Of a stretch of DNA of 64,000 nt, positions 10,738 through 61,369 are shown one piece after another. A model generated the notes under the pieces. The model was not told where the DNA came from. It ran no database searches and saw nothing but the letters and a program-made list of their open reading frames with translations. Origin of the DNA: a virus; IMG/VR virus record IMGVR_UViG_3300045988_169095; one strand, given 5' to 3'. The translations under genes and the position numbers were made by a program. The first letter of the stretch is position 1. The number at the start of each line of letters is the position of its first letter.

Positions 10738-10811
10738 GGTGGTTTCATCTAGTTGCGTTAGGATACCAGAGTCTCATTCTGGAAACAGAGGTTGGAGTCC
10801 TCTAACCACTA
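10738..10811 (+). tRNA. tRNA, anticodon probably CTC, with an atypical G32 and T-loop TTGGAGT.
   Basis: Acceptor GGTGGTT/AACCACT. Anticodon stem CCAGA/TCTGG with loop GTCTCAT. Confidence 0.4.
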
Positions 10812-13073: not shown

Positions 13074-13146
13074 AGAGCTATAGTATTTATAGGTAAGTAC
13101 ACTACTCTGAGGAGTAGAGATAGAGGTTCAAATCCTCTTAGCTCTC
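13074..13146 (+). tRNA. tRNA-like gene with a non-canonical anticodon arm (6-bp stem CTACTC/GAGTAG with a 4-nt loop, or an 8-nt loop TCTGAGGA). Identity unresolved.
   Basis: Acceptor AGAGCTA/TAGCTCT. D-stem GTAT/GTAC. T-arm AGAGGTTCAAATCCTCT. Confidence 0.4.
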
Positions 13147-13283
13147 CAAGACTTTTAAAATTTGTATAATGGAAAAAGTGACACAAAATGTACCTGATAC
13201 AGGTTATACAGATCCTGATGAATTCGTGAATGACCCTTGTATCGAAGCCATAGAGGATGAAGAACTTCTTAACATAGAATAAT

Positions 13284-16142: not shown

Positions 16143-17655
16143 GCCAGGATTCAAAGTAGTCCTGATCATGGTCGCTGTAATTGCAGCATTTTTCGTAATC
16201 AAAGCCGTCGTCCCTTCCTCCTCGTCGTCGGGGTCATCCTCTACTTCGGGTCTCGGCGACATCTTCGGAGGAAAACCGACCATCAACATCGGAGTTAACA
16301 CGTATGCGGGGTTCGCTCCCATCGTGTGGATTAATGGTGGTCTTCGTCCCAATGACGAGTCTATCCTGACTAAGGAGTATGGCATTCGTGCCAATATCAT
16401 TATCCAGGATGATTTTGTTGCTGGACGTAACGCTTTCCTGAATGGGGATATCGACCTTATTTATTGTACTACGGATGTATTGGCCGTAGAGATGGGTGAA
16501 GGTTCCGCAATGAACAGTGCTAAGTATGTAATGATGCTTAACCGTTCTCAGGGGGCAGATGCAATGGTAGTTACCAAGAATATTCGTACCGTTGCAGATC
16601 TTAAGGGTAAAAAGATTGCAGTAGCTGAAGGAACTGCATCTCATACTCTTCTTCTGAATATTCTTGAAACGAACGGGATCAGTCAGCATGACGTAACACT
16701 TGTGAAAGTTGATAACGGTGGTGCTGCAGCTGACACATTCAAAGCAGGTCAGGTAGATGCTTGTGTTACATGGGCACCTGATGACCAGGCTTGTGTAGAT
16801 GCTATTCCTGGTTCGAGAGTCCTCGTTTCAACCAAACATGCAAAAGACCTTGTAACAGATGGTCTTGTAGGAAAGGCAGAGTGGCTGGATAAGAATCATA
16901 ACGATGTTAAAAAACTTATTTCTGCAATTCTCTATGCTAATTCTACCCTGAATCAGAATCCGAATGCAGTGAAAGAAGCTTCGAAGATCTTCGCAAAGGC
17001 GTTTGGAACTGATCCTGAGTTTGCAGAATTGGGGTGTGGGAATATCTGGTTCGCTACTCTCGGTGATGAAGAAAATTTCTTTGGAATGACTTCCGATTAT
17101 ATGGGAATGAAGGCTGAAGAAATCTATTCAAAGATGGCTCGAACCTATGCTAGCCTTGGGCTTACTAAAAGTCCTCTGGGTTGGCGTAAAGTTTCCGACA
17201 TGTCGTTCATCGAGGAGCTTTCCAATGAGGGTACTGTACAAGGCAATCAGGCTCCTCAACCCGCAGTTAAGTTCTCTGCTGTAACATCAGAAGTCAGGGA
17301 AAAACAGGCAATTTCTAATAAGAAGTTGACTATTAATTTCCCTGTCAATGGTGACATCCTCGACAATGATGCTCGAGCTCTTATTGATCGAGAGTTTGTT
17401 CCGATTGCGAAGCAGTTCAACAATGCACGTGTTCGTATTGAAGGTAACACTGATAATACAGGTAATCGTGCGTACAACGAGTCTCTTTCATCTCGACGGG
17501 CTCAGGCTGTAGCTAATTATTTAATTAATGACTACGGTTTTGATCCCAATCGATTCATTATCGTTGGTAACGGTCCCAAGAATGCAATCCGTGATGGTGT
17601 GCAGGGTTCCAACATCAACTACCGAACAACTGATTTCATGCTCGTAACTGAGTAG
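16129..17655 (+). CDS. ABC-transporter substrate-binding protein (NMT1/SsuA/TauA family) fused to a C-terminal OmpA/MotB-like domain.
   Basis: N-terminal TM anchor, periplasmic binding fold, and a C-terminal NTDNTGNRAYNESLSSRRAQAV OmpA motif. Confidence 0.55.
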   Translation: MAQLKPGFKVVLIMVAVIAAFFVIKAVVPSSSSSGSSSTSGLGDIFGGKPTINIGVNTYAGFAPIVWINGGLRPNDESILTKEYGIRANIIIQDDFVAGRNAFLNGDIDLIYCTTDVLAVEMGEGSAMNSAKYVMMLNRSQGADAMVVTKNIRTVADLKGKKIAVAEGTASHTLLLNILETNGISQHDVTLVKVDNGGAAADTFKAGQVDACVTWAPDDQACVDAIPGSRVLVSTKHAKDLVTDGLVGKAEWLDKNHNDVKKLISAILYANSTLNQNPNAVKEASKIFAKAFGTDPEFAELGCGNIWFATLGDEENFFGMTSDYMGMKAEEIYSKMARTYASLGLTKSPLGWRKVSDMSFIEELSNEGTVQGNQAPQPAVKFSAVTSEVREKQAISNKKLTINFPVNGDILDNDARALIDREFVPIAKQFNNARVRIEGNTDNTGNRAYNESLSSRRAQAVANYLINDYGFDPNRFIIVGNGPKNAIRDGVQGSNINYRTTDFMLVTE

Positions 17656-17656
17656 T

Positions 17657-18493
17657 ATGCAGTTGTTCAAAATGGGTGGGACAATCACCTATAAACAAGC
17701 ATTGGCAACAGGTATCATAGGAGCAATAGTTCTGCTGCTCCTATGGTATCTAGTTACCATGTCAGGGGAAATCATTCGTCCTCAGATTTTACCGAATCCT
17801 ATAAATGTGCTCAAGGCATATCCAGATTTAATCTCTAACTCAGCCCTCTTTACCAATACTTGGTATACAATAAAGCTGAATCTTATGGGATATTTCTATG
17901 CTTTAATCATTGCAATCCCTTTGGGCCTTATTATAGGATTGTTTCCCGTTACTAAAGCGTTATTTGGCAAGTATTTTGATGCCCTTCGTTATCTCCCTAT
18001 ACCTGCAGTGTCTGGCATTTTTATCGCTGCTATAGGTATTGGATTCGATATGAAGGCTAGTTTTTTGGCTTTCGGCATTATTATTTACATTCTTCCTGTC
18101 GTTGTTCAACGAGTTTCCGAACTTCAGAATCCCGCTAATGATAAGGATTATGTGTATTTACAAACCATTTCAACGTTAGGTGCAACTAATTGGCAGAAAT
18201 TTCGATACGTTTATTTTCCTTATGTAATGCAGCGAGTTTCCACTGATGTCATTAATCTAACTGCTATTTCTTACACTTATATAGTGATTGCAGAAACCCT
18301 TAACAAGGAAGGTGGCATTGGTGCGCTGATAAACATAATGAGCAGACAGTCAAGAACTGCCGAAGTCTATGCACTTCTCTTCTTGATTATTGCTATTGGA
18401 ATTCTCCAAGATGTCCTTCTAAAGAAATTGGATGTTGTGCTCTTTCCTTCAAAGTACAATAAGCCATCCATCAAATCCAAAATAATGAAATAA
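17657..18493 (+). CDS. ABC-transporter permease (SsuC/TauC family).
   Basis: Six TM helices and an EAA-type loop (TLGATNWQKFRYVYFP). Confidence 0.6.
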   Translation: MQLFKMGGTITYKQALATGIIGAIVLLLLWYLVTMSGEIIRPQILPNPINVLKAYPDLISNSALFTNTWYTIKLNLMGYFYALIIAIPLGLIIGLFPVTKALFGKYFDALRYLPIPAVSGIFIAAIGIGFDMKASFLAFGIIIYILPVVVQRVSELQNPANDKDYVYLQTISTLGATNWQKFRYVYFPYVMQRVSTDVINLTAISYTYIVIAETLNKEGGIGALINIMSRQSRTAEVYALLFLIIAIGILQDVLLKKLDVVLFPSKYNKPSIKSKIMK

Positions 18494-18495
18494 GT

Positions 18496-19332
18496 ATGGG
18501 GCTCTTTGATGGTTTAACTGGATCCGTTCCAGTTCCCACATCTCGTTATGAGGCTGTGGATGTAATTAACTTGAAAAATCTTAACCAGTCTTTTGATACT
18601 CCTAAAGGAAAGTTCACTCTCTTTAAGGATTTTAGTCTGGATATAAAAGATTTCTCAGGAGAAGGGCAGTTTATCAGTATCTTAGGAAAGAGTGGTTGTG
18701 GTAAATCTCAGCTGCTCAAAATCATCTCTGGGCTTACACAGCCAGATTCAGGTGAAGTTCTTGTTTATGGGAAACCACAGACAGGAAAAATTCCTATGGT
18801 ATTTCAGCAGTATTCTTCATTTCCATGGATGTCAGTTCTTGACAATGTAAAACTTCCGCTCATACTTCGAGGAGTTTCTGATAAAGAAGCTACAGAGAGG
18901 GCTATGGAAATGATCAAAATTGTAGGTCTGGAAGGTAATGAAACTAAATGGGGTCAGTATCCTGTGTTATCGGGAGGACAGCTTCAACGAGTTTCAATGG
19001 CGCGAGCCCTGGTTGCAGATAACAAAATTCTTTTGTTAGATGAAGCCACTGGTGCATTAGATATTGTTATGAAACGAGAGATTCAGAACACCATTTTGGA
19101 TATCTATTATAACGCCAAATTCGATCCTACAATCCTCAATGTTACACATAGCATTGAGGAGGCTGTATATCTCTCAAATCGAATTTACATTTTAGCTCCT
19201 AATCCCTGTAAAGTTCAGGCTGTCATTGATGTTAACTTTGACGGTAGGAGAACGGATGCAATTCGTCAAACTACAGCATTTGCAAATTATGTGAAACAAG
19301 TAGAACAAGTAATGTCAGAAACACATGAGTAA
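18496..19332 (+). CDS. ABC-transporter ATP-binding protein.
   Basis: Walker A GKSGCGKS, signature LSGGQLQRV, Walker B LLLDEAT. Confidence 0.7.
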   Translation: MGLFDGLTGSVPVPTSRYEAVDVINLKNLNQSFDTPKGKFTLFKDFSLDIKDFSGEGQFISILGKSGCGKSQLLKIISGLTQPDSGEVLVYGKPQTGKIPMVFQQYSSFPWMSVLDNVKLPLILRGVSDKEATERAMEMIKIVGLEGNETKWGQYPVLSGGQLQRVSMARALVADNKILLLDEATGALDIVMKREIQNTILDIYYNAKFDPTILNVTHSIEEAVYLSNRIYILAPNPCKVQAVIDVNFDGRRTDAIRQTTAFANYVKQVEQVMSETHE

Positions 19333-25218: not shown

Positions 25219-25290
25219 CGCGGTAGTAGTTCTTTGTGAAATTCTCTGCGGTATACAGTTAGTGGAAGCATAAAAGAATTTCACTTTAAG

Positions 25291-25361
25291 CACCTTTGGT
25301 GTAATTGGTAACACGATGGTCTCCAAAACCATAGTTTAGAGTTCAAGTCTTTAAGGGTGTG
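25291..25361 (+). tRNA. tRNA-Trp(CCA).
   Basis: Anticodon stem ATGGT/ACCAT with loop CTCCAAA. G73. Acceptor has G1.U72. Confidence 0.55.
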
Positions 25362-25419
25362 CATAGTTTTATTATTATTTATTACAAAGTCTCTTCAGCA
25401 AAATTTATAGCATGGGGGC

Positions 25420-25490
25420 ACTATGGTCACAGGTTCAATTCCTGTTTAATAGAAAAGTTCTATTAATAGCTCAGTTGGTAGAGCGATAGT
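25420..25490 (+). tRNA. Candidate circularly permuted tRNA. The 3' half (anticodon stem 3' strand ACTAT, variable loop, T-arm ACAGG-TTCAATT-CCTGT, acceptor 3' strand TTAATAG) at 25420-25452 precedes the 5' half (acceptor CTATTAA, D-arm TAGCTCAGTTGGTAGAGC, anticodon stem 5' strand ATAGT) at 25460-25490.
   Basis: The two halves are perfectly complementary in the 7-nt acceptor and the 5-nt anticodon-stem strands. No T-arm lies downstream of the 5' half. Confidence 0.45.
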
Positions 25491-25512
25491 TAATATAATA
25501 GAGACTTTTTAT

Positions 25513-25603: not shown

Positions 25604-26179
25604 ATGAATAAAATTGACAAATATTTAAGAAGGTTTGCATACAAAATTGAAACCTCTGAGACAAAGGAATCTAGGTATTATACTATTGGGGATTTAATCG
25701 TTAGAGTATCTAATCATATTGGGAAAAATTCTTCTGGGAATATATCAATAATTATTGACAGAAATAATTATATACTTTATGTTCCATCAACTAATAAAGT
25801 AAGTCTTATTTCTTATGAGGAGTGTAAAACTTTAATCAGAGGTATTGTATTACATGCTTCTTTATTTTTGGTTGGAGATTCTACATATCAAAAAAGTCTT
25901 GTTAAGGAGAATGAAGAGTTAAAACTTCAGATTAGTAATTTAAAGCAGAAAATAAATATTCAGGAAAGACAATTAATTCCGAAGAAAAAACCAAATGATA
26001 CGTCTATCAAAGTAATTCGAGCTATTTTAATAAATTTAGAAAAGTGCAAAAAGAAAAAAATTAAAGTTAAGTATGGCTCTTGTGAATTTCAAACGTTACC
26101 TGACAGTACGATTTATGAAATTTGGAAAGATCCAGAAATTCGAAAATATGTTAAAGAACTTAAAATTAATTTAATATGA
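25604..26179 (+). CDS. Hypothetical protein.
   Basis: 191-aa ORF. Confidence 0.45.
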   Translation: MNKIDKYLRRFAYKIETSETKESRYYTIGDLIVRVSNHIGKNSSGNISIIIDRNNYILYVPSTNKVSLISYEECKTLIRGIVLHASLFLVGDSTYQKSLVKENEELKLQISNLKQKINIQERQLIPKKKPNDTSIKVIRAILINLEKCKKKKIKVKYGSCEFQTLPDSTIYEIWKDPEIRKYVKELKINLI

Positions 26180-27296: not shown

Positions 27297-27401
27297 GGCC
27301 ATGCTTGCTTCTCCATTTTATGGCCCTGTAAGCAAAGTGGTAAAGCTGCTTATATATTCTAGGTTCATAAGTGTGTGGAGGTTCGAGTCCTTCCATGGCC
27401 A
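27297..27401 (+). tRNA. tRNA-like element with an unresolved intervening body. Acceptor strands GGCCATG/CATGGCC are about 93 nt apart. The 3' part TCATA-AGTGTGT-GGAGG-TTCGAGT-CCTTC resembles the 3' half at 27128.
   Basis: Canonical T-arm and acceptor pairing, but the D-arm and anticodon arm cannot be placed canonically. Possible intron or rearrangement. Confidence 0.3.
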
Positions 27402-27500
27402 CGTGGTTTCATATTTAATTTGTTTTTAAGAAGAGGTAACTTACAGCAAATTTAAGTATAATTCGTCTGTTAATTATTCATAGTTACCTAGTTTTAAGGA

Positions 27501-27597
27501 GCGGGTATGGCGCAATTGGTAGCGCAGAGCACTTTTAATGCTAAGGGAGCCGAAAGGCCGTTCAGGGTTCAAGTCCCTGTGCCCGCACTATTTTTGG
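27501..27597 (+). tRNA. Type II tRNA with a long variable arm closed by a GAAA tetraloop. Anticodon loop CTTTTAA (reads as TTT). Identity unresolved and atypical.
   Basis: Acceptor GCGGGTA/TGCCCGC. D-stem GCGC/GCGC. T-arm CAGGGTTCAAGTCCCTG. Confidence 0.45.
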
Positions 27598-28543: not shown

Positions 28544-28615
28544 GAGGTATTGGTGTTAGTGATAGCATATGTGACTTCCAATCACAAGGGGAGAGTTTGA
28601 ATCTCTTATACCTCT
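28544..28615 (+). tRNA. tRNA-Gly(TCC).
   Basis: Acceptor GAGGTAT/ATACCTC. Anticodon stem TGTGA/TCACA with loop CTTCCAA. Confidence 0.55.
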
Positions 28616-28650: not shown

Positions 28651-29385
28651 ATGAAACGTTTTAAAGAACTTTCAGATGATATAATCAGAACTGTGTGAAA
28701 TAACAGTAAAAGTTTGTTTGAAATTTGTAAAAAGTTAGAAATTCATGATAATATTTCTAATAGAAATAAATTAAAAGAATGGGCAGTTAAAAATAAAGTG
28801 GAGATTCCTGTTACTAACATACTTACAAAAGATAGTTATGAAAAGAATCCTAAACTATGTAAACAATGCGGAAGTGCAATTTCATGAAGTAAGAGAGCCA
28901 ATGACTTTTGTTCCCATTCATGCAGTGCTACATATATAAATTTAAAAAGAGGCGCTAAGTCAAGTGGTAAGTATGTTCGTGGTGCTACTTCTATCTGTGT
29001 AAATTGTGGAAATGTAGTACCTGCAAGAAATCAATATTGTAATCACAAATGCCAAGCTGAATATGCCTACAAGGAATTTATCAAACGCTGAAAAGAAGGT
29101 AAAGAATTAGGAATGGCAGGTGAAGATGGATTATCTGCACATATTCGACGATATTTATTAGAGAAGGCTAATTATACCTGTGAAATTCCAGGATGTGGAT
29201 GTAATTTTATTAATCCCTACACCAATTTATCTATCCTTCAGATACATCATATTGATGGAGATGCAACTAACAATAAAGAAGAAAATCTCCAGGTTTTGTG
29301 TCCAAATCATCATGCAATGACTGAACATTTTGGATCAAGGAATAAAAATAGTACTAGACGATATCGATACTCTAAAAATAAATAG
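28651..29385 (+). CDS. HNH homing endonuclease with an N-terminal zinc-ribbon region. 3 in-frame TGA=Trp codons.
   Basis: The C-terminal HNH domain matches track ORF 29113-29385. The frame from ATG 28651 is continuous through TGA codons (TVW, ISW, KRW). Confidence 0.55.
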
Positions 29386-31196: not shown

Positions 31197-32810
31197 ATGA
31201 CTCTATTTATCATTCTCGGTGCAGCACTACTGTTAGTGTTGCTCTCAGTAGTGGGAATTCTCTCACGGTACAGAAAATGTCCTTCTGACAAGATTCTTGT
31301 AATCTTTGGTAAGACAGGGGGCGAAAAATCTGCTAAGTGCATTCATGGAGGAGCAGCTTTCGTGGTACCTATCGTACAGGGTTACAGTTTCATGTCACTT
31401 AAACCTTTGCAGTTTGAGTGTAATCTTCAGAAAGCTCTGTCTTCACAGAATATCCGAGTAGATGTTCCAACTACTGTGACTGTAGGTATTTCTACAGAAC
31501 CTGAAGTAATGCAAATGGCTGCAGAGCGATTGCTTGGATTGACTACTGACCAGATTGAAGATCTCGTTAAGGATATTGTATATGGTCAGATGCGTCTAAT
31601 TGTGTCTAATATGACCATTGAAGAGCTGAACTCTGAACGAGACAAGTTCCTGGAAGAAGTGAAGAATGTTGTTGGTGGAGAGCTTCGTAAGATTGGCCTG
31701 CATCTTATCAACGTCAATATCACTGATATCAGGGATGAGGCAGGTTATATCATCGCATTAGGTCAGAAGGACAAAGCAATTGCTCTTAATAAGGCAAATG
31801 TTGAAATCGCTAAGGCTGAAAAGGACGGTGCAACTCAAACTGCAGAGCAGAACAAAATTAAGAACTCTGAAGTTGCTGCAACCCAACGTGAGGAAGCAGT
31901 TGCGGTCGCAGTGGCAAATGCCGAGCGAGATTCCAAGGTTGCAGAAACTCAGCGTACTCGTGATATCAATGTGGCAACTGCTAAAGCAGAAGGTGAGATT
32001 GGTAAAATCGAAGCTGAGAAGACTGTAACAAACAAGAATGCTGAGTTGGAAGTTGTGCGAGCAGATGCTGAAAAGGCTGCAAACACAGCTCGTGTAAAAG
32101 CAGAAGCTGAAGTCGCTAAGGAGAAAGAGCTTGCTCAAGTAGAAGTTGTTAAGGCTGAAGCAAAAGTGCTGCAAGAGCAAGAACTCGCTCAGAAGACTGC
32201 AGAAGAAGCTCGTGCTCAGCGTCAAGAAGCAGCCTTACATGCTGATAAGATTGTACCTGCAGAAATTTCTAAGAAAGAGAGTCTGCTGCGTGCTGAAGCT
32301 TATCAGCTGGAACAGGAGAAAATCGCAGAAACTAATGCTAATAAGACTAAAATCGAAGCTGATGGTAAAGCGCAAGCTGAAGCTCTCAAGGGTGAAGGTG
32401 AGGCTAAAGCCATTACTGCTAAAGGTCTTGCTGAAGCAGAGGTTGTTCGTCAGAAAGGTTTGGCTCAGGCAGAAGCAGAGAAAGCTTCTCTTAAGGCTCA
32501 GGCAGATGGTTTCCGTGAGATGATCGAAGCTGCCAAAACTGATCCTGCGATTGCAATTCAGTTCAAGATGGTTCAAGAAGGAACCTACGAAAACATTGCT
32601 AAGCAACAGGTTGAGGCTTACAAGCACATGAACTTCGGTAATGTGACCATCATGGACACTACGAAGGGTGGAGGCCTCACAAATGTGATGCAAAGCCTTC
32701 TGTCTCAAGTATCCCCCATGCTGAATGTTATGAAAGAAATGAAAATTCCTGGAGTATCAAAGGTATTGGAAGAGAAAACTGAGGATGCTAAATTTCCTGA
32801 AGTTAAGTAA
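31197..32810 (+). CDS. SPFH/Band-7 flotillin-like protein (537 aa).
   Basis: N-terminal TM helix, an SPFH domain, and a long Ala/Glu/Lys-rich coiled-coil repeat region (flotillin-like). Confidence 0.6.
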   Translation: MTLFIILGAALLLVLLSVVGILSRYRKCPSDKILVIFGKTGGEKSAKCIHGGAAFVVPIVQGYSFMSLKPLQFECNLQKALSSQNIRVDVPTTVTVGISTEPEVMQMAAERLLGLTTDQIEDLVKDIVYGQMRLIVSNMTIEELNSERDKFLEEVKNVVGGELRKIGLHLINVNITDIRDEAGYIIALGQKDKAIALNKANVEIAKAEKDGATQTAEQNKIKNSEVAATQREEAVAVAVANAERDSKVAETQRTRDINVATAKAEGEIGKIEAEKTVTNKNAELEVVRADAEKAANTARVKAEAEVAKEKELAQVEVVKAEAKVLQEQELAQKTAEEARAQRQEAALHADKIVPAEISKKESLLRAEAYQLEQEKIAETNANKTKIEADGKAQAEALKGEGEAKAITAKGLAEAEVVRQKGLAQAEAEKASLKAQADGFREMIEAAKTDPAIAIQFKMVQEGTYENIAKQQVEAYKHMNFGNVTIMDTTKGGGLTNVMQSLLSQVSPMLNVMKEMKIPGVSKVLEEKTEDAKFPEVK

Positions 32811-36313: not shown

Positions 36314-36802
36314 ATGGATAAAATTTGTTCAAAATGTGGGGAAACTAAAGACATTTCACTCTTTGCTAAGGATCGACACTCTTCTGATGGATATACTTAT
36401 TGATGTAAAGATTGTAGAAATACAGCAAATAAGAAATATCGGAAAGAAAATCCTGATAAAGTTCAGGAACATAATGAAAAGTGAAGAGATAAAAGAAAAG
36501 AATATTATAGTCTTCCTAAAAATCAAGAAAAGCTTAGAAGACATCATCTCAAGAAAATGTATAATATTACTTTGGAAGACTATGATGCTTTGTTTCAACT
36601 TCAAGGTGGTGTTTGTGCTATATGTGGAAAACCTGAAACAAGCTCAAAGGCTAGTAACTTAGCAGTAGATCATAATCACACAAATGGTAGTATTAGAGGC
36701 CTATTATGTAATAAATGTAATAGAGGCTTAGGATATTTTGAAGATGATGCAACTATTTTGTCTAAAGCTATAGAATATTTAAAAAATAAAGATAATGTTT
36801 AG
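36314..36802 (+). CDS. HNH endonuclease (T4 endonuclease VII-like) with 2 in-frame TGA=Trp codons.
   Basis: N-terminal zinc-ribbon CSKCG..CKDC joins in frame to the track ORF at 36557-36802, which carries CAICGK and DHNH. Confidence 0.5.
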
Positions 36803-38279
36803 ACCGTGTTCAGTCCTCCTTTCAGATTTTTATAAGCAGGATCACCAGCGTCAATATGACCCTAGCATCACTAAGGTAGTTTCTTACTATGTACCTCGTA
36901 AAACTAGGATTCCTGAATTTGATAAGGTAGTAGTTTTTGGTATTCAAGCATTTATTGAGGAATATCTGATTGAGTACATGAATGAAACTTTCTTTAACCG
37001 TCCCTTAGAAGAAGTTATTGCAGAATATGAATTTGTGATTTCTTCTACTATGGGAGCAGACCGTGTTAACTCGGATAAAATTAAAAACCTTCATGAATTA
37101 GGATATCTTCCTATCGAAATTTGGGCACTTCCTGAGGGATATAAAGTAGGAATGAATATCCCCTGTATCGAGATTTCTAATACTAATCCAGAATTTGCAT
37201 GGTGTACTAATTTCATTGAAACCTTGATGCTCTCTGAGCTTTGGTATCCAATGTGTGTTGCAACTGCTGTAACTAAATATCGTAGTATTGTAAATGATTT
37301 TTATTCTAAAACTTCTGATATTTCTGGTCGTTCTGCTATTTCTGAGTTCGGATTTAGAAGTTTAGTTGGACTTCATGGTGCTATTAAAGCTTCGTGTGGA
37401 TTTTTGCTCTCTTTTAATAAGACTGCGACTATTCCTGGCATTATGTATGCTTCAAAGTATTATCATACCCCAATGTCTGTAGTAGGTGGAGGTATGGCTT
37501 CTACTGAGCACTCCGTAATGTGTAGTTCTGCTGCCATTGATGGGGATGAAAAAGTTATGATTCGACGCCTCCTTACTGAGGTCTATCCTAATGGATCATT
37601 CTCTATGGTAAGTGATTCCTATGATTACTGGAATGTTGTCGATGAGATTCTCCCATCTCTTAAGGAAGAAATTCTCAGTAGAAATGGTACTTTGTATGTT
37701 CGTGGTGACTCTGGAGATCCTGTAGAAATTGTAACTGAGACGGTTTTCTCTCTTTGGGAGACTTTTGGAGGCACTGTCAACTCTAAGGGATATAAAGTCT
37801 TAGACCCTCATGTTCGAGCTTTATATGGTGATGGCATCACTCAGTTACGTGCAAAACAGATTTATCAGATTTTGTATGATAAAGGATTCTCTGCAGAGAA
37901 TGTTGCACTTGGTGCAGGAGGATTTTCCATGCTTTCTTACATGGATGAGTTTGGGAATGTAGATATGTTCTCTCGCGATACATTTAATGTAGCAATTAAA
38001 TGCAGCTATGTAGAACAAACCATTGATGGAAAAACTAAATCTATCATGGTCTACAAAGATCCTAAAACGGATTCAGGAATGAAGAAATCCCACAGAGGAT
38101 GTTGTGCTGTTTTCTACAACCATGTAACTGGTGAGTTTGATTGTGATGAAGGTATGACACTGAAAGAAGCTCATAATGAGCCTTTCAATTTACTTCGTCC
38201 TATCTTTTCAGATGGAAAAATGAGAGAGCAAACTACTCTCACAGAAATTCGTAGAACTCTTTGGAACGGGAAATTCTAA
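36795..38279 (+). CDS. Nicotinamide phosphoribosyltransferase (NAMPT/NadV family). May be a Namat-like enzyme.
   Basis: Extended similarity blocks to NAMPT: SDFYKQ..YDP, LPIEIWALPEG, SDSYDYWN, GDSGDP. Confidence 0.65.
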   Translation: MFRPCSVLLSDFYKQDHQRQYDPSITKVVSYYVPRKTRIPEFDKVVVFGIQAFIEEYLIEYMNETFFNRPLEEVIAEYEFVISSTMGADRVNSDKIKNLHELGYLPIEIWALPEGYKVGMNIPCIEISNTNPEFAWCTNFIETLMLSELWYPMCVATAVTKYRSIVNDFYSKTSDISGRSAISEFGFRSLVGLHGAIKASCGFLLSFNKTATIPGIMYASKYYHTPMSVVGGGMASTEHSVMCSSAAIDGDEKVMIRRLLTEVYPNGSFSMVSDSYDYWNVVDEILPSLKEEILSRNGTLYVRGDSGDPVEIVTETVFSLWETFGGTVNSKGYKVLDPHVRALYGDGITQLRAKQIYQILYDKGFSAENVALGAGGFSMLSYMDEFGNVDMFSRDTFNVAIKCSYVEQTIDGKTKSIMVYKDPKTDSGMKKSHRGCCAVFYNHVTGEFDCDEGMTLKEAHNEPFNLLRPIFSDGKMREQTTLTEIRRTLWNGKF

Positions 38280-39050: not shown

Positions 39051-39941
39051 ATGGGAAGCGGATCATGGAGTTCTAGCACATATAAAGCTTTTGCTAATAG
39101 CTATACTAAAAAATCCAGAGAAGAAATCTTTCATCAAAGATCTCTACACGAAGAAATGGATCTTACAAAAAGTAAGACGCATATTCGAGAATCTAGAGAT
39201 TCTGAGGAACACCCAGAATCTCTTCCAGTTTTCATTGCATTAGATGAAACTGGTTCAATGGGTTCAATTCCTGATAAGATGATCAGGGATTATCTTCCGA
39301 AGTTAATGGATTCTATTATTGATTCTATTGGAGTTAAACACCCTCAAATTCTTTTTATGGGAGTAGGAGATCATGAATGTGATCACTGCCCGTGTCAGGT
39401 AGGTCAATTCGAATCTTCAACTGTTGCAATTAATCAGTGTCTCTCTAAAATCTATTTGGAGGGTCGTGGTGGAGGTAATAGTGGAGAATCCTACTTACTT
39501 CCTTGGATTATTGCAGGAAATCACACGTCAATTGATAGCTGGGAAAAGCGAAAGCAAAAAGGATTCCTTTTTACAGTTGGTGATGAACCTACTTTGACAA
39601 GAATAAGTAGGGGAACTTTGGCATCCCTCACTGGAATGGAGTATGAGCGTGATTATACCTGGCAGGAGGCTTATGAACTTGCCTGTGAGAAATATCATGT
39701 GTTTCATATCCATGTTCGACATGGAAGTGAACATTATGATGAGGTAGTAGCTAAACAAATGAAAGAAATTCTTAGAGAAAACTTTATTGTGTGCAAACCT
39801 GATGAAGTTGTAGAAGCCATTTGTGAAGCTATGGGTAAAACTCTAAAAGGTAGCTCTTCAGTAATTGAAGAGGTTTCTGCAGAAAAAACTGTAGAAAATA
39901 CAGAATCAAAACCTAATATATTTGACATACATCGACGATAA
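39051..39941 (+). CDS. vWA-domain protein.
   Basis: MIDAS motif FIALDETGSMG. Confidence 0.45.
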   Translation: MGSGSWSSSTYKAFANSYTKKSREEIFHQRSLHEEMDLTKSKTHIRESRDSEEHPESLPVFIALDETGSMGSIPDKMIRDYLPKLMDSIIDSIGVKHPQILFMGVGDHECDHCPCQVGQFESSTVAINQCLSKIYLEGRGGGNSGESYLLPWIIAGNHTSIDSWEKRKQKGFLFTVGDEPTLTRISRGTLASLTGMEYERDYTWQEAYELACEKYHVFHIHVRHGSEHYDEVVAKQMKEILRENFIVCKPDEVVEAICEAMGKTLKGSSSVIEEVSAEKTVENTESKPNIFDIHRR

Positions 39942-41035
39942 TGTATAATATTGTAGTGGGTTGTACGTTTGGCGACGAGGGCAAGGGTCAAGTGACTCAT
40001 GCCCTTTGTTGCGACGCTAAAAGAAAGCGTTTAAAACCTCTGGTTGTTAGATTTTCTGGAGGGCATCAAGCAGGGCACACAGTAACTACTTCATTTGGAA
40101 CAATGCATATATTTTCTTGCTTTGGATCTGGAACATTTGCTGAAGCACCTACCTATTGGATGAAGCAATGTGTTATGGATCCACTACAATGGATGCGGGA
40201 ACGAGAGGAGTTGGATTTCTTAGGATGTAATATCCCTATCCAATATTTTGATCCATATGTACAAGTAACAACTCCTTTTGACGTAATGCTGAATTCTGAA
40301 AGGAGTAAAGGTTTTACAGTAGGAAAAGGGATATGGGAGACTGTTCAGAGACAAAGAGAAGGACTAGCTTTATATGTAAAAGATTTAGCTTTTCCTCAAG
40401 TTGTAAAAATGAAGCTCCGATTAATTAGAGAATGGGCGGAAGATAGACTCCAGTTTAAGGAAACTTATTCAAGATTTGCTTATGTTTTCGATAACTTAGA
40501 TTCTTTAGTACATACTTATTGTAAGATTTTTTATCCCAATATAGTATTGGAGGATACGTTATCTAAATTAGCATGGAAAGAAAAGACTTCTGTGATATTT
40601 GAGGGTTCTCAAGGAGTACTTTTGGACCCTAATATTGGATTTTCACATGAATATACTACCCCACTTCCATGTTGTCCATCGTGGGACAATCTCCCATTCT
40701 TTTTAAGTGATGATCAACTAATATTTAATTTTGTATATAGATCTTATTTAACAAGACATGGTAAAGGGCCTGTTGGAGGTTCTATATTCAAGGAGATTAA
40801 TAATCCTTATGAAACAAATTTAAATAACCCTTTTCAAGGGGAATTTCAAACTTATGAATTCAATAAGGAATTAGTCTTGTATGGAATTGATCATGTTAAA
40901 TCACACTTTAATCCTGAATATAAGGTAAGGTTGATTGAAACATGTTGTGACATATGTGCAGGACATGACTTAGGAATCCCTTATAATTACTCTATCAAAA
41001 CCTGCAAAAAGAATTTTGACTCTGTATGCAAATAA
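39941..41035 (+). CDS. Adenylosuccinate-synthetase-family protein, truncated (364 aa, PurA/PurZ-like).
   Basis: P-loop GDEGKGQ and GGHQAGHT motifs characteristic of PurA. Confidence 0.5.
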   Translation: MYNIVVGCTFGDEGKGQVTHALCCDAKRKRLKPLVVRFSGGHQAGHTVTTSFGTMHIFSCFGSGTFAEAPTYWMKQCVMDPLQWMREREELDFLGCNIPIQYFDPYVQVTTPFDVMLNSERSKGFTVGKGIWETVQRQREGLALYVKDLAFPQVVKMKLRLIREWAEDRLQFKETYSRFAYVFDNLDSLVHTYCKIFYPNIVLEDTLSKLAWKEKTSVIFEGSQGVLLDPNIGFSHEYTTPLPCCPSWDNLPFFLSDDQLIFNFVYRSYLTRHGKGPVGGSIFKEINNPYETNLNNPFQGEFQTYEFNKELVLYGIDHVKSHFNPEYKVRLIETCCDICAGHDLGIPYNYSIKTCKKNFDSVCK

Positions 41036-42475: not shown

Positions 42476-43537
42476 ATGATGTATAGTTTAGATGAAATAG
42501 GTATTTTACCTAGTTCAAAAGCCACGGATATTACAAGTCGTAGTGAGTGTAGTCCTTTAGGAGACTTAGGAACATATCCTATTTTTGTTTCTCCTATGAC
42601 ATCCGTTATTGATGAATCAAATTATCAACTTTTTACAAAGGCTGATGTGCTTCCAATTATTCCAAGACGTGTAGATAATTTACAGTTTAGACTTAATGCA
42701 TGTAACCATGTTTGGTGTGCATTTAGTTTAAAGGAATTTGAAACATTCTTTTGTGAAGGAGAACCTTCTGATGAGTGTCCTCTGGTACTTATTGATATGG
42801 CTAATGGCCACATGAAGAAAATTTATGACCTGGTTAAGAAGGCTAAGGAAAAGTGGAGCACGATTATTATCATGGTAGGTAATATAGCTCATCCAGATCT
42901 TTATTGGGAATGCTATGATGCAGGGGTGGACTATGTTCGTGTAGGTATTGGAACTGGCAGTGTATGTACTACAGGAGTAAAAACTGGAGTACATGCTTCT
43001 ATGGAATGGCTATTGCAACAATTAGTTAAGCGTCGATCCATGATTAAAGAGTCTCCTAAACCTAAAAAGGCTCCAAAGATTATCGCAGATGGAGGAATTT
43101 CTACAATAGATCGAGCTATAAAGTGTTTAGCTTTGGGCGCCGATTATGTAATGATGGGTAAAATGTTTGCTCAATGTAACGAAGCTTGTGGGTATGTTAG
43201 AACAAAGTGGCCAGATGATAATGATACTATACTTAAATATTTTGCATCTTTAACTAAAGCAGAAAGTGATCGAATCATTGAAGTGTATCCTAAAGAGCGA
43301 TTATACTACGGAATGGCAAGTGAACGTGGTCAAAAGGATATTTCAAACACTAAAAAGGCCGAAGAAGGAATTGAAATTTGGGTTCCTGTTGAATATACTC
43401 TTGAATCTTTACTTTCTCAATTTGATTCTGCATTAAGGTCTGCTATGTCTTATACAGGATGTAGGACTCTTGAAGAATTCAAAAATGTAAAATGGGAGTA
43501 TATGTCTCCCTCTGAAAGAAATGCTTATTACAAATAA
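42476..43537 (+). CDS. GMP reductase/IMP dehydrogenase-family TIM-barrel protein.
   Basis: Catalytic Cys loop GIGTGSVCTT and GGISTIDRAIKCLALGADYVMMG. Confidence 0.55.
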   Translation: MMYSLDEIGILPSSKATDITSRSECSPLGDLGTYPIFVSPMTSVIDESNYQLFTKADVLPIIPRRVDNLQFRLNACNHVWCAFSLKEFETFFCEGEPSDECPLVLIDMANGHMKKIYDLVKKAKEKWSTIIIMVGNIAHPDLYWECYDAGVDYVRVGIGTGSVCTTGVKTGVHASMEWLLQQLVKRRSMIKESPKPKKAPKIIADGGISTIDRAIKCLALGADYVMMGKMFAQCNEACGYVRTKWPDDNDTILKYFASLTKAESDRIIEVYPKERLYYGMASERGQKDISNTKKAEEGIEIWVPVEYTLESLLSQFDSALRSAMSYTGCRTLEEFKNVKWEYMSPSERNAYYK

Positions 43538-43850: not shown

Positions 43851-43916
43851 TTTAGATATGAATTTTATAGGTTATGTTATAATATTTAACTAATTTTTAG
43901 AATGAATTCAAAATGA

Positions 43917-44543
43917 TTGTTAGAAAAAGAAAAATTAGAACAATTAATTTTAATTGATAAACTAAGTTACGAAGAGATAGGGAAAAAATATAATTGCTCT
44001 GGTAGTAATATTAAAAAAGTTGCTTCAAAAATAGGAATTACGTTACCAAAGAGACGTAAATTAAATCCTAATGAAACATTTAATAAAGGAGTGCATAAAG
44101 TAATTGTTTCTAATATTAATATCCCTAAACCTATACAAAAAGTTGGCACTAAAACTTATTGTCTTAACTGTGGACATGAATTAGATGGATATGCCAAAAA
44201 ATATTGCTCTAGTAAATGTCAAATAGAGTATAAACATAAATTAGCATATAAAAAATTTTTAGAAGGAGATCTTTCTATTATGAGAGCTAATTATAACCCT
44301 AGAGTATTTAAGAAAGATATTATAAAAGAACAAAACAATAAGTGTGCTATCTGTGGTTTAGAACCTGAGTGAAATAATAAGGAGCTTGTTTTTATTTTAG
44401 ATCATATTGACGGACATGCTGCAAACAATAAACGAGATAATTTAAGGTGTATATGTCCTAATTGTGATTCACAATTAGATACTTATAAATCTAAGAATAA
44501 AAATGGAGATAGGCATTATTACAGATACCATAAAAATAAATAG
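43917..44543 (+). CDS. HNH endonuclease with N-terminal HTH and zinc ribbon. 1 in-frame TGA=Trp codon. Start uncertain (TTG at 43917).
   Basis: Track ORF 43917-44372 continues in frame through the TGA into the HNH core LDHIDGH..NNKRDNLRCICPNC. Confidence 0.45.
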
Positions 44544-46961: not shown

Positions 46962-47342
46962 ATGTTCTTTCTTAATTTAGCTGTATTAATTTTTTGTGGA
47001 GCAGTTCTTGGATATGAGAGACAAAAAACTAACAAGGTAATTGGAATTCGTTCCGTTGTTCTACTGATGTTAGGATCTTTTATATTTACATATATCTCTA
47101 CAAGAATAGGTGGAGATCCTTCTAGAGTAGCTGCCCAGATAGCTTCTGGAGTTGGCTTTATTGGTGCTGGAATCATTTGGAAGGATAAATCTACCAATAT
47201 AGCTAACTTAACAACAGCAATTCTCATTTGGGTTATTGCAGCTTTAGGAAGCATGATTTCTATTGGATTACTTGCTGAAGCAGTAGTAATAACAGGAGTA
47301 ATTTACATTGTCCTTAGATTTAATTTTTTGAAGGACGTCTAA
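46962..47342 (+). CDS. MgtC/SapB-family membrane protein.
   Basis: GYERQ...DPSRVAAQIASGVGFIGAGII. Confidence 0.55.
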   Translation: MFFLNLAVLIFCGAVLGYERQKTNKVIGIRSVVLLMLGSFIFTYISTRIGGDPSRVAAQIASGVGFIGAGIIWKDKSTNIANLTTAILIWVIAALGSMISIGLLAEAVVITGVIYIVLRFNFLKDV

Positions 47343-48347: not shown

Positions 48348-48437
48348 GCGCCTGACCCGAGGCGGGGGGGAGGTCTTCAAAACCTCTATGCTGTTGGTCC
48401 ATCTTCAGCCCTGTGGGATCGTTACCTACCAGGCGTG
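48348..48437 (+). tRNA. Candidate opal suppressor tRNA-Sup(TCA). It reads UGA, probably as Trp given G73. It has a long variable arm and an atypical T-loop ATCGTTA.
   Basis: Perfect 5-6 bp anticodon stem GAGGT/ACCTC with the 7-nt loop CTTCAAA. Acceptor GCGCCTG/CAGGCGT with G1.U72. Discriminator G. Confidence 0.55.
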
Positions 48438-48453
48438 CAAATAAGAAGTAAAT

Positions 48454-49038
48454 ATGACTATTAAGGAACAATGTATACATTTACGGGAAGAAGGAAAAAC
48501 TTATAACGAAATTTGTACTATTCTACACTGTTCTAAAAGTACAGTTGCATATCATTTGAATACGACTACTAAGATAGCAGCTACAAAATGACAAAGCGAA
48601 AACAAATGTAAGGATTGAAAGTACAAATTTATGCATAGTTGTTCTAACTTTCTAAATCGAAGAGATAGATCTAAACATATCAGAACAATGTGTTCAGATT
48701 GAAATAAAAAGTTTAGAACTCACGTATCAGAGTTCAATAATAGATATAAAAACAAAGGAAATTTGGCTAATAAATGTTATTACAAGGATGTGTTAACATA
48801 TCTTAATGGAACTAATGTTAAATGTTATTTAACAGGTGCACCTATTGATTTGACAAAAGATGATTATTGTTTTGATCATATAGTTCCTGTATCAAAAGGA
48901 GGAACTAATGAATTATCAAATCTAGGAGTAACTATTCCCTCAGTTAATTATTCTAAACATGATTTAACTATAGAGGAATATTTGTCTTTATGTAAACAGG
49001 TTTTAGAACACCATGGGTATACTGTAAGTAAAACTTAA
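48454..49038 (+). CDS. HNH endonuclease with an N-terminal HTH and 3 in-frame TGA=Trp codons. Paralog of the gene at 29687-30256.
   Basis: The N-terminal segment with TGAs joins in frame to the track ORF at 48763-49038, which carries the HNH core. Confidence 0.5.
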
Positions 49039-51276: not shown

Positions 51277-51564
51277 ATGAAGATGTTTACTGAGTTTAAA
51301 AAACTTATTCCCAATAATAAATTGGGTGTTATTTCTCATCCTTGTAATAATTCAGTAATAGAGCCAAACATCTTAAAATGTTTGAATTACAAGATGCAAT
51401 TTTCACTTCGAAAATGTAATCTTATCTATTGGAATATGCTGAAACAGCTTTATATATCATCTGATGATATGTTTAAATTTCTTAAAGGAGGAGTAAGTTA
51501 TAGAGAAAGTATGACTGCCTTAATGGTAAGAGTACTAAGAGAAAATGTAGCTAAAAACGTATGA
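51277..51564 (+). CDS. Hypothetical protein.
   Basis: 95-aa ORF. Confidence 0.35.
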   Translation: MKMFTEFKKLIPNNKLGVISHPCNNSVIEPNILKCLNYKMQFSLRKCNLIYWNMLKQLYISSDDMFKFLKGGVSYRESMTALMVRVLRENVAKNV

Positions 51565-56346: not shown

Positions 56347-57171
56347 ATGGGGAAACAAAAGTATAATTTAATTGACGGATTTGAAGAGTGTGCAGCAGAA
56401 ATGTATAAATCTGGAAAAACTCTTCGAGAAATAGCAAATGTTATTGGTACCTATCCAGGAAAAGTAGGACAAATTCTAAAAGAATTAGGAGTAAAGAAAG
56501 GGAGACAATACAAATACATTAATGAGCATTATTTTGACATAATTGATTCTGAGGATAAAGCTTATATCTTAGGATTTTTAATTGCTGATGGATGTATTAG
56601 ATTAGAGGAAAGAAAGAATGTAATTAGTTACAGAATTGCATTTTCTAATAATATTGACGATTCTGAAACAATTGAATTAATTCATTCTAAAATCTGCCCT
56701 AACCAAATGTTAAGAGTGTATCAGAATCCTTTAGGGCATAGAAAACCTCAATATGTTCTTCAATGGACTTCTGAGTATATGGCTAAGATATTAGAAGATA
56801 AATATAACATAACTAACAGAAAAACTTATGATGTACATTTTAGATTCCCATTTGAAAATGTCCCTTCTCAATTCCATAGAGATGTAATTAGAGGATTTCT
56901 AGATGGAGATGGATGTGTACAGAAACATTGTATTAGTTTTGTATTTAATTCTATTAAGTTTCTTACTCAGGTTATTGAGGTATTTAAAGATCTTTTTCAA
57001 AGAAATCCTTTGATGCCTTCAATGTTATATAACATTGAAGTTATAGATGGAAAAACTACTAAATACTGAAGATTACGTATTGCTACTGGACATGGAAGAA
57101 GAGCGCTAATTAAAGATTATCTATATAATGGCGCAACTTACTTTTTAACTAGAAAATTTGCTAAGTTTTAA
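56347..57171 (+). CDS. LAGLIDADG homing endonuclease with an N-terminal HTH. The C-terminal extension passes through one TGA.
   Basis: Two LAGLIDADG motifs, YILGFLIADGCI and IRGFLDGDGCV. Confidence 0.5.
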
Positions 57172-60148: not shown

Positions 60149-61369
60149 ATGGACAAAACTCAACGTCAACGATTAGGCGTTCAAAAATGAATTAATAATA
60201 AAGGAAATGGGATTTGGGTTTGAAGTACTGGTGTTGGTAAATCATTTGGAGCTTTAATGGCTTGTGTGAAATTACTAAAAATTAGACCAGATGCTAAAAT
60301 TCTAATTTCTGTACCTACAACAATTCTCAAGGAGCAATGACTAAGAGACGTAGCTAAAACTAAATTCTTTGGAAATGTTACTGTTGAGGTTATTAATTCT
60401 ATTTTAAAAAAATCTTGAGAAGTTGATTTTCTAATAATTGATGAGCTTCATACTGCGGTATCGGAGCAGTCAATAAAAATATTTGATCAAGTTAAGTATG
60501 ATTTCTTTCTGGGGCTTACAGCTACTTTAGAAAGACTTGATGGAAGAGAGGAATTACTATCTTTATATACTAGAGTAATTGATGTCATTACAACTGAAGA
60601 AGCAATAAAAAATGGATGATTATCGCCATTTAGGTATTACAAAGTTCTTGTGGAGGTTGATGACATGGATACTTATTATGTAATGAACCAAAAGTTTAAT
60701 TCAGTTTTTGCATTCTTTAATTTTGATTTCAGTTCTGCAATGAAATGTGCAACTGATTGAAAGTTCCGTAATAATTACGCTTATAAGATGGGATATGATA
60801 GAAATCAGGTTTTAAATGCTGCTATGGCGTGGATGCAATTAATGCAGAAGCGCAAAAAATTTGTTATGTCCCACCCTAAAAAGTTTGAAATAGCGAAAAA
60901 AATTATAGAAGCAAGAAAAGATAAAAAAATTATTACTTTTTCAGCCACTATTAAAGATGCGGAATCTTTAAAAGTTGGATATACTCTTCATAGCAAAAAG
61001 AAAAAACAAGAAAACTCAGAAACTATTGCATTGTTTAAGTCTCAATCTTCAGGGGTTCTTAATACATCTAAAGCAGCTAATGCAGGATTGGATTGCCCTG
61101 ATATAAATTGTGAGATTAGAATTAGTGGAACTAGTTCTGGAATTGATGCAAGGCAGATTTTGGGAAGGGGATTGCGTTATGTTAATAATAAGATAACTGA
61201 AGTTTTTACTTTGGTTGTTAAAGGCACTAACGAAGAATCCTGGTTTAATAAGGCCCATCAAGGCATTTCATATATTACTATCACTGAAGATCAACTTGAC
61301 TTAGTTTTAAAAGGAGAAGAAGTAATCACAAGAAAACGAGATGATGTAATTACTAACTATAGATTTTAA
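60149..61369 (+). CDS. SF2 DExH-box helicase with 6 in-frame TGA=Trp codons.
   Basis: Motif I TGVGKS, motif II IIDELH, motif III LTAT, motif VI QILGRGLR. Continuous frame from ATG 60149 into track ORF 60788-61369. Confidence 0.55.

Follow-up and report, generated by a model that had tools for sequence, protein, structure and literature searches.

A tRNA Gene with the Anticodon UCA and a Long Extra Arm

The DNA considered here is a stretch of 64,000 nucleotides (nt) from the IMG/VR virus record IMGVR_UViG_3300045988_169095, referred to below as the window, and our subject is a transfer RNA (tRNA) gene with the anticodon UCA at 48348-48437. The window has a GC content of 35%, is phage-like, and carries about 29 tRNA genes, all of them on the plus strand. 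An earlier note, made from the letters of the window, had proposed the gene as a candidate opal suppressor with a tryptophan (Trp) identity element and as the likely decoder of in-frame TGA codons. That view is borne out by the analysis below, in that this is the sole UCA tRNA found in the window, the in-frame TGA codons are real, and TGA and TGG interchange. The note had also remarked on a long variable arm, atypical for tRNA-Trp; the arm is indeed present, but rather than a mere oddity it is the most telling part of the gene, the CCA-bearing anticodon-arm mimic of a widespread family of phage tRNAs.

As delimited from the ARAGORN call, the sequence and the minimum free energy (MFE) cloverleaf, the gene runs for 90 nt on the plus strand from base 1 to the discriminator G73 (48437), which is a bacterial Trp identity element; the CCA tail is not encoded, and the bases after G73 are CAA. 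The 5′ strand of the acceptor stem, GCGCCUG (48348-48354), pairs with CAGGCGU (48430-48436) and begins with G1.U72 and C2-G71. It is followed by a reduced D arm (48356-48366), consisting of a 4-bp stem CCCG/CGGG and a 3-nt loop AGG in the MFE fold, and by the decoding arm (48369-48387), with a stem (G)GAGGU/ACCUC(U), which counts 6 bp if the G.U pair is added to GAGGU/ACCUC, and a loop CUUCAAA (48375-48381) that holds the anticodon UCA at 48377-48379. Next comes the extra arm (48390-48409), GCUG-UU-G[GUCCAU]C-UU-CAGC, in which the outer stem GCUG/CAGC is followed by two U.U mismatches and a G-C pair closing the 6-nt loop GUCCAU (48397-48402), with U-CCA at 48398-48401 and the CCA itself at 48399-48401. 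The T arm, GUGGG-AUCGUUA-CCUAC (48413-48429), has a non-canonical loop with A54 and U58 swapped. The acceptor stem with G1.U72, the anticodon stem, the 7-nt loop with UCA, G73, the long variable arm and the T loop had all been pointed out in the earlier note, and each lies where it had been placed.

With its 7-bp acceptor stem, 5-bp T stem, 7-nt anticodon loop and U33, the gene has the general features of a cloverleaf. Of the two kinds of program by which the earlier note had proposed to check the fold, ARAGORN returned a tRNA in the same anticodon register (anticodon tca, 48348-48438, labeled "SeC"), whereas the Rfam tRNA models were silent: there was no match to RF00005 (tRNA) or RF01852 (tRNA-Sec), even at E<=10. 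The canonical D loop (G18 G19) and T loop (T54-Psi55-C56...A58) are replaced by AGG and AUCGUUA, and the folding energy is uninformative, being no better than that of shuffled sequences (z = -0.73). Because of the Rfam miss and the ordinary folding energy, the ARAGORN call alone would be weak, and the case is therefore made from comparative data; the miss is not taken as a refutation, since homologs and covariation support the gene. It remains the single tRNA with a UCA anticodon in the 64-kb window by ARAGORN and by Rfam at both gathering and permissive thresholds. Comparison with the other tRNAs of the window revealed no close paralog, and therefore the gene is not a recent derivative of tRNA-Ser(UGA).

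The ARAGORN label raises the question of whether this is a genuine selenocysteine tRNA (tRNA-Sec), with which the anticodon UCA, the long extra arm and G73 would agree. We consider the chance of this close to nil, and the identity was rejected. The acceptor/T geometry is 7/5 rather than 8/5, the D stem has 4 bp with a 3-nt loop rather than 6 bp with a 4-nt loop, the tRNA-Sec model RF01852 does not match, TGA occurs up to six times per gene and at Trp columns (see below), and the true tRNA-Sec sequences recovered in the same scans form a separate class that lacks the motif described next.

A Phage Family with Two Anticodon-Type Arms

IMG/VR was scanned with the pattern GTCTTCAAAACN{27,36}GGTTCRA, which fixes just two loops, UCA and T, at a spacing that suits a long arm and specifies nothing in the arm itself; G30-C40 and U31-A39 were required in the UCA arm. 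Counts for the resulting family are those among the matches listed, and its sequences are not independent of each other. Together with the loci already collected, the scan gave at least 74 distinct long-arm tRNA(UCA) sequences, comprising 17 tRNA-Sec and 57 non-Sec sequences. Among the matches listed, UCCA is found in the extra arm of 55 of the 57 non-Sec sequences and in none of the 17 tRNA-Sec; as controls, it occurs in 4 of 67 other long-arm tRNAs and in 8.6% of shuffled arms. The usual loop of the arm is a 7-nt N-U-CCA-A-A, that is, a copy of the anticodon loop of tRNA-Trp. Among these matches, every one of the 37 seven-nt loops has U33, C34, C35 and A36; 34 have A37 and 34 have A38, and position 32 is occupied by G (18/37), C or U. 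The loop is carried by at least 52 different hairpins, for example AACGGU-CUCCAAA-GCCGUU at locus L025, GAAGC-CUCCACA-GCUUC at L011 and GGAG-CCUCCAAAA-CUCC at L012.

In an alignment of 32 members from which the window sequence was left out, all five helices covary, 96.6% of cells are paired as opposed to 40-47% when the partners are slid, and all four pairs scored in the CCA arm (4/4) have changed on both sides. The association between the two arms also holds in the opposite direction: in a reciprocal search that specified the D and CCA arms but nothing in the first arm, the first loop was CUUCAAA in 11/11 genuine tRNAs. The UCCA motif sits on at least three D-arm architectures, G73 is present in 52/55 members among the matches listed, and the first acceptor pair in most of the family is A1-U72. 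The CCA arm, which has a 7-nt loop and is set between hinges of 4-5 and 3-4 nt, differs in its attachment from the arms of Ser, Leu and Tyr tRNAs, whose hinges measure about 1-2 nt and whose loop has 4 nt.

When a canonical member was compared with deposited phages by BLAST, no phage genome matched with both arms; matches extended from the CCA arm to the 3′ end only, and those that were annotated were mostly tRNA-Trp(CCA). Because the CCA arm and everything 3′ of it are collinear with tRNA-Trp, the two-arm tRNA resembles a tRNA-Trp in which the anticodon arm occurs twice in tandem, the first copy having been changed to UCA. The canonical members at L012, L025, L109, L120 and L131 score 50-60 bits with the Rfam tRNA model, which treats the CCA arm as a plain insertion. 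At L120, a two-arm tRNA(UCA) (290-382) and an ordinary tRNA-Trp(CCA) (391-461) lie 8 nt apart as a tandem pair.

The loci that carry two-arm genes are enriched for in-frame TGA. At same-frame junctions of open reading frame (ORF), stop and ORF around the two-arm loci, 81 of the stops are TGA as compared with 11 TAG and 35 TAA, an excess that was absent in low-GC controls; these junction counts replaced the six-frame ORF density under alternative codes, which is confounded by GC content. In about 185,000 species-representative genomes (GTDB scan), five Trp-like two-arm members were found. One of these stands beside terminase genes in a decayed prophage of Bacteroides neonati MS4, and the large terminase has an in-frame TGA. 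The GTDB scan is unusable as evidence for the motif, because its pattern contained TCCAAA and returned mostly true tRNA-Sec. Among these, the cellular loci L215-L244 are tRNA-Sec with UCCAAA in the variable-arm loop, from about five or six lineages (a Caulobacterales-type group, Bryobacterales, Rubripirellula, Terriglobia and a deltaproteobacterium); they were selected by the hexamer-containing pattern, and the resemblance is probably due to chance. The two-arm tRNA(UCA) is a widespread phage family, with members in diverse phages, dozens of them.

The tRNA of the window has the features by which this family is defined, namely a UCA arm followed by a hairpin whose loop holds U-CCA, G73 and 7/5 acceptor/T geometry. 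It lacks the canonical 7-nt N-U-CCA-A-A loop on a continuous stem of 5-7 bp, and the closest canonical variant of its loop is GUCCAUA (L119, L184). A covariance model of the family aligns its full length and places both loops in register, at 41.9 bits, a score that does not discriminate because ordinary tRNAs score similarly. The Rfam model, while detecting canonical members, misses both the window subtype and L011, which may help explain why such genes are overlooked or labeled SeC. From its sequence features, we class the window copy as a diverged member of the two-arm family.

Conservation and Exchange of the Window Subtype

The window's version of the tRNA is shared with other phages. Its 91 nt are 100% identical in nine IMG/VR contigs of 89-170 kb, in which the upstream ORF is 73-98% identical, and 14 further full identical copies occur in metagenome contigs, several of which are 160-176 kb in length and carry a human-gut label, giving 23 other contigs in total. 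Among related contigs, the tRNA(UCA) and the downstream HNH gene form a block of 95-100% identity. A megablast search with 24 kb of the window against deposited phages gave no match.

In the variants, every helix is maintained by compensatory change. The copy at L334 has a compensatory change from G-C to A-U within its anticodon stem, and the D stem CCCG/CGGG has become CUCA/UGAG at L013, L336, L341 and L350 and CCCA/UGGG at L343. The extra arm is identical across all variants of the subtype, including L013, a copy that ARAGORN overlooked. The L013 tRNA differs from that of the window at nine bases, which are two compensatory D-stem pairs, one base in the D loop, one in the linker and three in the T loop (GGCGGUA); its acceptor stem and both arms are the same, and DNA similarity between L013 and the window at this site is limited to the tRNA. 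In the homolog at L011, whose helicase is 60% identical, the acceptor stem and both arms are changed on both strands with pairing kept. Conservation together with compensatory change indicates a selected structural RNA, and argues that the 4-bp D stem with its 3-nt loop is real.

The helicase at L013 is identical to that at L012, which in turn is about 48% identical to the window's, and yet the two loci carry different tRNA subtypes, which implies that one tRNA gene has taken the place of another through exchange between phages. At the same position, L012 (2731-2824) has a canonical and L013 (2543-2633) a window-type two-arm tRNA(UCA), between flanks that are 93-97% identical.

In three relatives, the tRNA(UCA) gene is interrupted at the exact junction of U34 and C35 (L336, ~2184-2876; L343, ~4009-4701; L350, ~1388-1684, tRNA orientation). 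The insert is 602 nt long, or 206 nt in L350, ends in ...AGUAAG at its 3′ side and leaves the exons intact; the long form encodes a 167-amino-acid PD-(D/E)XK endonuclease (Pfam PF11645, E = 3.5e-15) with two in-frame TGA codons. It has the look of a mobile intron in the anticodon loop of the suppressor, but no group I intron match was found for it in Rfam.

These data bear on the possibility that the window copy is a decaying or non-functional relic, and that UGA is decoded by a gene outside the window or by near-cognate readthrough in the host. The reduced D arm, the non-canonical T loop, the 6-nt pseudo-anticodon loop and the failure of Rfam to detect the copy would suit a relic, and the window covers 64 kb of a genome of roughly 170 kb. 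A relic would hardly be expected, however, to be perfectly conserved in 23 other contigs despite a diverged flank, to show compensatory changes in the D and anticodon stems, to persist in a phage with a helicase of only about 48% identity, or to retain intact exons around an intervening sequence in its relatives. We therefore regard decay as improbable, and are highly confident that the window gene is a real tRNA of the two-arm family.

Evidence for TGA as a Tryptophan Codon

In the window, genes of full length emerge when TGA is read through, and Pfam matches run across in-frame TGA codons in a helicase gene, in DnaB_C and AAA_24 genes, in three HNH genes and in a LAGLIDADG gene. The DEAD/ResIII helicase (60152-61369, plus strand) is a good example of a client gene, with six in-frame TGA codons, four of them at columns that hold W in most or all homologs. 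It has 1359 homologs, and in the 26 that were aligned W14, W64 and W157, for which the window has TGA, show no variation. L011 has TGG at positions 14 and 64, where the window, L010 and L012 have TGA, and this swap of TGA and TGG at invariant Trp columns argues that TGA stands for Trp. On these sequence comparisons, TGA in this phage most likely means Trp.

TGA is not used in this way throughout. Codons for Trp of the TGA type are clustered in the genes for homing endonucleases and in the replication module (55.5-64 kb), while the genes at 5-55 kb mostly have TGG only. At 26176-26179 and 51561-51564 there are ATGA start/stop overlaps, in which TGA apparently ends the upstream gene, and TGA therefore still seems to be a stop in the part that is mostly TGG-only, which suggests mixed coding. 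The layout corresponds to the mixed-code pattern described for recoded gut phages. In the window, recoding affects genes for replication and endonucleases, whereas the literature stresses late or lysis genes. The earlier note had further suggested that expression of the tRNA would gate translation of the recoded genes; such gating would fit the codon map. The HNH homing-endonuclease gene that begins 15 nt 3′ of the tRNA (48454-49038, plus strand) has in-frame TGA at 48589, 48616 and 48700 and no TGG, so that its translation depends on a UGA decoder.

Four homing-endonuclease genes, three HNH and one LAGLIDADG, lie among the tRNA genes (48454-49038, 28651-29385, 43902-44543 and 56347-57171), with TGA/TGG counts of 3/0, 3/1, 2/0 and 1/1, respectively; their neighbors have TGG only.

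Overall, the virus is most likely a human-gut phage of roughly 170 kb in which TGA is a Trp codon in part of the genome.

The amino acid at these columns also bears on whether the tRNA might be a class II-type suppressor charged with serine (Ser), or with a mixture of Ser and Trp. A long extra arm and G73 constitute the identity set of seryl-tRNA synthetase (SerRS), and both are present; Ser identity derives mainly from the size of the extra arm and not from its sequence (PMC9976931), and one scaffold subgroup of the family has a class-II-like D arm. However, TGA aligns with W and TGG at invariant Trp columns rather than with Ser, and because SerRS is blind to the sequence of the arm, an invariant U-CCA-AA loop would be left unexplained. 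The hinges and the 7-nt loop are unlike those of Ser, Leu and Tyr arms, C2-G71, as in the window tRNA, is an antideterminant against SerRS in E. coli tRNA-Leu (PMC9976931), and the phage tRNA(UCA) genes that were tested inserted Trp (10.1101/2025.10.30.685624). With no sign of Ser and TGA at Trp columns, this reading was rejected, and we would give it only a very small chance. That the window tRNA decodes UGA as Trp is, on the contrary, very likely.

Tryptophan Identity and a Possible Role for the CCA Arm

Bacterial tryptophanyl-tRNA synthetase (TrpRS) recognizes its tRNA through G73, the first pairs of the acceptor stem and the anticodon (PMC9976931). The earlier note had reported a canonical tRNA-Trp(CCA) in the window, and this was recovered by ARAGORN and Rfam at 25290-25362 on the plus strand, where it serves as the identity comparator from the same phage. 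It shares with the tRNA(UCA) G73, G1.U72, C2-G71, C4-G69, C5-G68 and the GGU-CU.CAAA-ACC anticodon arm. The decoding arm of the tRNA(UCA) has U34-C35-A36, and has thus lost C34 of the Trp anticodon, while an intact U-CCA is found in the loop of the extra arm. Reading UGA requires U in place of C34, and this costs the tRNA one of the identity elements of TrpRS.

We propose that the two arms divide the work between them. The UCA arm would pair with UGA on the ribosome, and the CCA arm would act as a pseudo-anticodon that hands to the host TrpRS the C34-C35-A36 element lost from the decoding arm. A host enzyme whose evolved substrate is tRNA-Trp(CCA) could thereby load the suppressor with Trp, both efficiently and specifically. 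The long single-stranded hinges flanking the arm may allow it to lie beside the anticodon arm or to swing away on the ribosome. Given that the U-CCA-AA loop is strictly conserved, occurs only with UCA arms and is always combined with a Trp-type acceptor, restoration of the missing element is the most economical explanation. An engineered precedent exists, in which a pseudo-anticodon variable arm raised aminoacylation in E. coli via the anticodon-binding domain (Mukai 2020, PMC7590224), and in E. coli extracts Trp was inserted by each of 13 other phage tRNA(UCA) genes (10.1101/2025.10.30.685624). Both the charging of the window tRNA with Trp and the recognition of its CCA arm by TrpRS are what we infer from sequence. 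We hold the reading as a whole, that is, a functional phage tRNA that inserts Trp at UGA and uses its CCA arm as a TrpRS pseudo-anticodon, with moderate confidence; for the step in which the arm acts through TrpRS, taken by itself, we would put the chances only a little above even.

Several observations pull in the other direction. Since the tRNA and the HNH gene are both nearly identical among related contigs, recent spread, and not selection alone, may explain part of the identity. The window copy is atypical in its 6-nt loop, two U.U mismatches, mini D arm and non-canonical T loop; neither Rfam model recognizes it, and its score with the family model is no higher than that of some ordinary tRNAs. 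Related phages (L037, L043) have a tRNA(UCA) of ordinary length without the arm, and because this armless type is charged with Trp in E. coli extracts, the arm would be an enhancer and not a requirement. The stem of the CCA arm ranges from 4 to 7 bp, which is looser than expected for docking at a fixed distance. The proposal presumes that a hairpin in the variable arm can reach the anticodon-binding domain of TrpRS, and the design of Mukai needed an extra fused domain. Finally, a search for the amber/Gln analog (a CUA arm plus a CUG or UUG arm) gave 81 chance matches and none in a tRNA, although the pattern was narrow and the negative is a weak one.

Alternatively, the CCA arm might be functional and yet serve a partner other than TrpRS that recognizes the anticodon loop of tRNA-Trp, such as a Trp T-box leader (with induction of trpS or trp genes in the host), an anticodon nuclease or other defense factor for which it is a decoy, or modification enzymes of the MiaA type; or it might tune UGA suppression on the ribosome. 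U33, CCA and A37-A38 would keep the U-turn shape of the loop, which suits codon-like pairing (for example, with the T-box specifier UGG) or a protein, and the charging of normal-length tRNA(UCA) without an arm leaves room for such a role. The window also has other class-I tRNAs with unexplained long arms, for example tRNA-Lys(UUU) at 27501-27588; the Lys and Arg extra arms described below, however, do not mimic their own anticodons. A T-box measures the distance from anticodon to elbow, which a side arm would not reproduce, and G73 and a Trp-type acceptor end have been retained. Moreover, UCA accompanies the arm in 11/11 reciprocal cases and every member was found as a UCA tRNA, and this constant association points to a need arising from the anticodon change itself. 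We consider a different partner unlikely, though it is the alternative to which we give the most weight.

A further alternative is that the tRNA is two-headed, with either arm able to stack under the D stem, so that UGG is read via the CCA arm and UGA via the UCA arm, or CCA is used for charging and UCA for decoding. Relative to the D arm, the UCA arm is placed canonically, one base (position 26) away, and so is the CCA arm relative to the T arm, with a linker of 3-5 nt like a normal variable loop and a 3′ part collinear with tRNA-Trp. Many CCA arms are in fact perfect anticodon arms of 5 bp with a 7-nt CUCCAAA loop. Against decoding by this arm, G occupies position 32 in 18/37 CCA loops among the matches listed, and the CCA stem varies from 4 to 7 bp, as opposed to the fixed 5 bp of real anticodon stems. 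G at position 32 is rare in decoding anticodon loops. A tRNA with U34 can already read UGG by wobble, and these phages also have a normal tRNA-Trp(CCA) (at 25290 in the window and at 391-461 in L120). We find the two-headed tRNA hard to credit. Its structural core, in which a conformational switch at the tRNA core lets either hairpin take the anticodon position, with CCA for TrpRS and possibly UGG and with UCA for UGA, is likewise doubtful. If it were true, identity and decoding would be split over two interchangeable anticodon arms.

Other Features of the Window

Long extra arms also occur on tRNAs that normally have short ones, namely tRNA-Lys(UUU) at 27501-27588 of the window and tRNA-Arg(UCU) at L003 (8550-8637); the loops of these arms (e.g., GAAA) do not mimic the anticodons of their own tRNAs. 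A tRNA with the anticodon CUA at 27322-27402 resembles an amber suppressor (ARAGORN "Pyl"; Rfam tRNA, 39.4 bits), with a 13-nt region in place of the anticodon loop, and no clear in-frame use of TAG was seen within the window. Two tRNAs missed by ARAGORN, one with the anticodon CUC and a tRNA-Gly(UCC), were found by Rfam at 10738-10811 and 28544-28615, and ARAGORN reported a tRNA with a two-base "anticodon" (ga) at 13074-13147. Other RNA elements include a Pistol self-cleaving ribozyme at 9704-9774 (Rfam RF02679, 72.1 bits, E = 3e-11) and, between tRNA-Trp and tRNA-Pro, a weak match to YrlA (Y RNA-like) at 25400-25511 (30.6 bits against a gathering threshold of 69, E = 0.013), which may be due to chance or to a tRNA-like RNA.

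Auxiliary genes are located at 16129-19332, 31197-32810, 36795-38279, 39941-41035, 42476-43537 and 46962-47342. Their products comprise a substrate-binding protein fused to OmpA together with an ABC permease and ATPase, an SPFH/Band 7 protein, NAMPT, adenylosuccinate synthetase, an IMPDH/GMP-reductase-like protein and MgtC. Among its larger genes, the window showed neither a TrpRS nor a release factor.

Significance and Comparison with Known Systems

Phages that recode in hosts with the standard code need suppressors that are charged by host synthetases, which check the anticodon. If the proposed mechanism is true, this problem would be solved simply and generally by repeating the cognate anticodon on a side arm, which would uncouple charging from decoding. 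The UCCA motif offers a practical marker for suppressor tRNAs and recoded phages that are now mislabeled as tRNA-Sec or missed, and the two-arm design is a possible template for efficient opal suppressors in genetic-code expansion. In the window itself, the analysis establishes the odd gene as a real tRNA under selection, with ties to recoded genes for replication and homing endonucleases, the adjoining HNH gene included.

The phage opal suppressor itself is known, whereas the pseudo-anticodon arm is absent from the papers on recoded phages and on tRNA structure that we covered. In the literature searched, from which most subscription journals fell outside so that an earlier description is possible, the only pseudo-anticodon tRNA found was an engineered one, and no natural tRNA with two anticodons or a pseudo-anticodon was found. 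Ivanova et al. 2014 is reportedly a further source on TGA-recoded phages.

The nearest biological relatives are the suppressors of code-4 gut phages, which likewise consist of a phage UCA tRNA in a low-GC genome with in-frame TGA for Trp and presumed charging by the host TrpRS (Borges et al., 10.1101/2021.08.26.457843). The comparison with TGA-recoded phages that the earlier note had suggested thus turned out well, in that phage UCA tRNA, in-frame TGA and mixed-code layout are alike, and phages of that type likewise combine standard-code and recoded blocks in one genome. They differ in the genes concerned, which are replication and homing-endonuclease genes in the window as opposed to structural and lysis genes, and in that Borges et al. 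describe no CCA-bearing extra arm, such as the present tRNA has. The charging of phage suppressors by host synthetases was left as an open question by these authors, who detected suppressors in only ~35% of code-4 phages and suspected that non-canonical structures had been missed (10.1101/2021.08.26.457843).

Bacterial tRNA-Trp(CCA) and the opal suppressors derived from it likewise have G73, A1-U72 or G1.U72 and GGU-CU.CAAA-ACC, and align with the two-arm tRNA from the CCA arm to the 3′ end. However, tRNA-Trp is a class I tRNA with a variable loop of 4-5 nt, whereas the two-arm tRNA has two tandem anticodon-type arms, to which the window subtype adds the mini D arm and altered T loop. tRNA-Sec and the allo-tRNAs (Mukai et al. 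2017, PMC5389517) share with it the long extra arm, G73 and UCA, and the two-arm tRNA turns up in searches for tRNA-Sec; their geometry is 8/5, 8/4 or 9/3 with a different D arm, as opposed to 7/5. Further, what is conserved in the two-arm extra loop is its sequence, while it is the size of the arm that SerRS and the Sec machinery recognize.

Hairpins that copy a cognate anticodon loop and are recognized by a synthetase are also known from the E. coli thrS operator and from viral tRNA-like structures (PMC9976931), but these are regulatory or genomic RNA elements and not a second arm inside a decoding tRNA. Closest in design is the suppressor of Mukai 2020 (PMC7590224), in which the variable arm was likewise replaced by a mimic of the cognate anticodon arm that recruits the anticodon-binding domain independently of the decoding anticodon. 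That design is synthetic, with His identity on an allo-tRNA chassis, needed a histidyl-tRNA synthetase fused to an additional anticodon-binding domain, and had a modest effect. No natural counterpart was reported with it, and its likeness to the two-arm tRNA is one of functional analogy, not of family membership.

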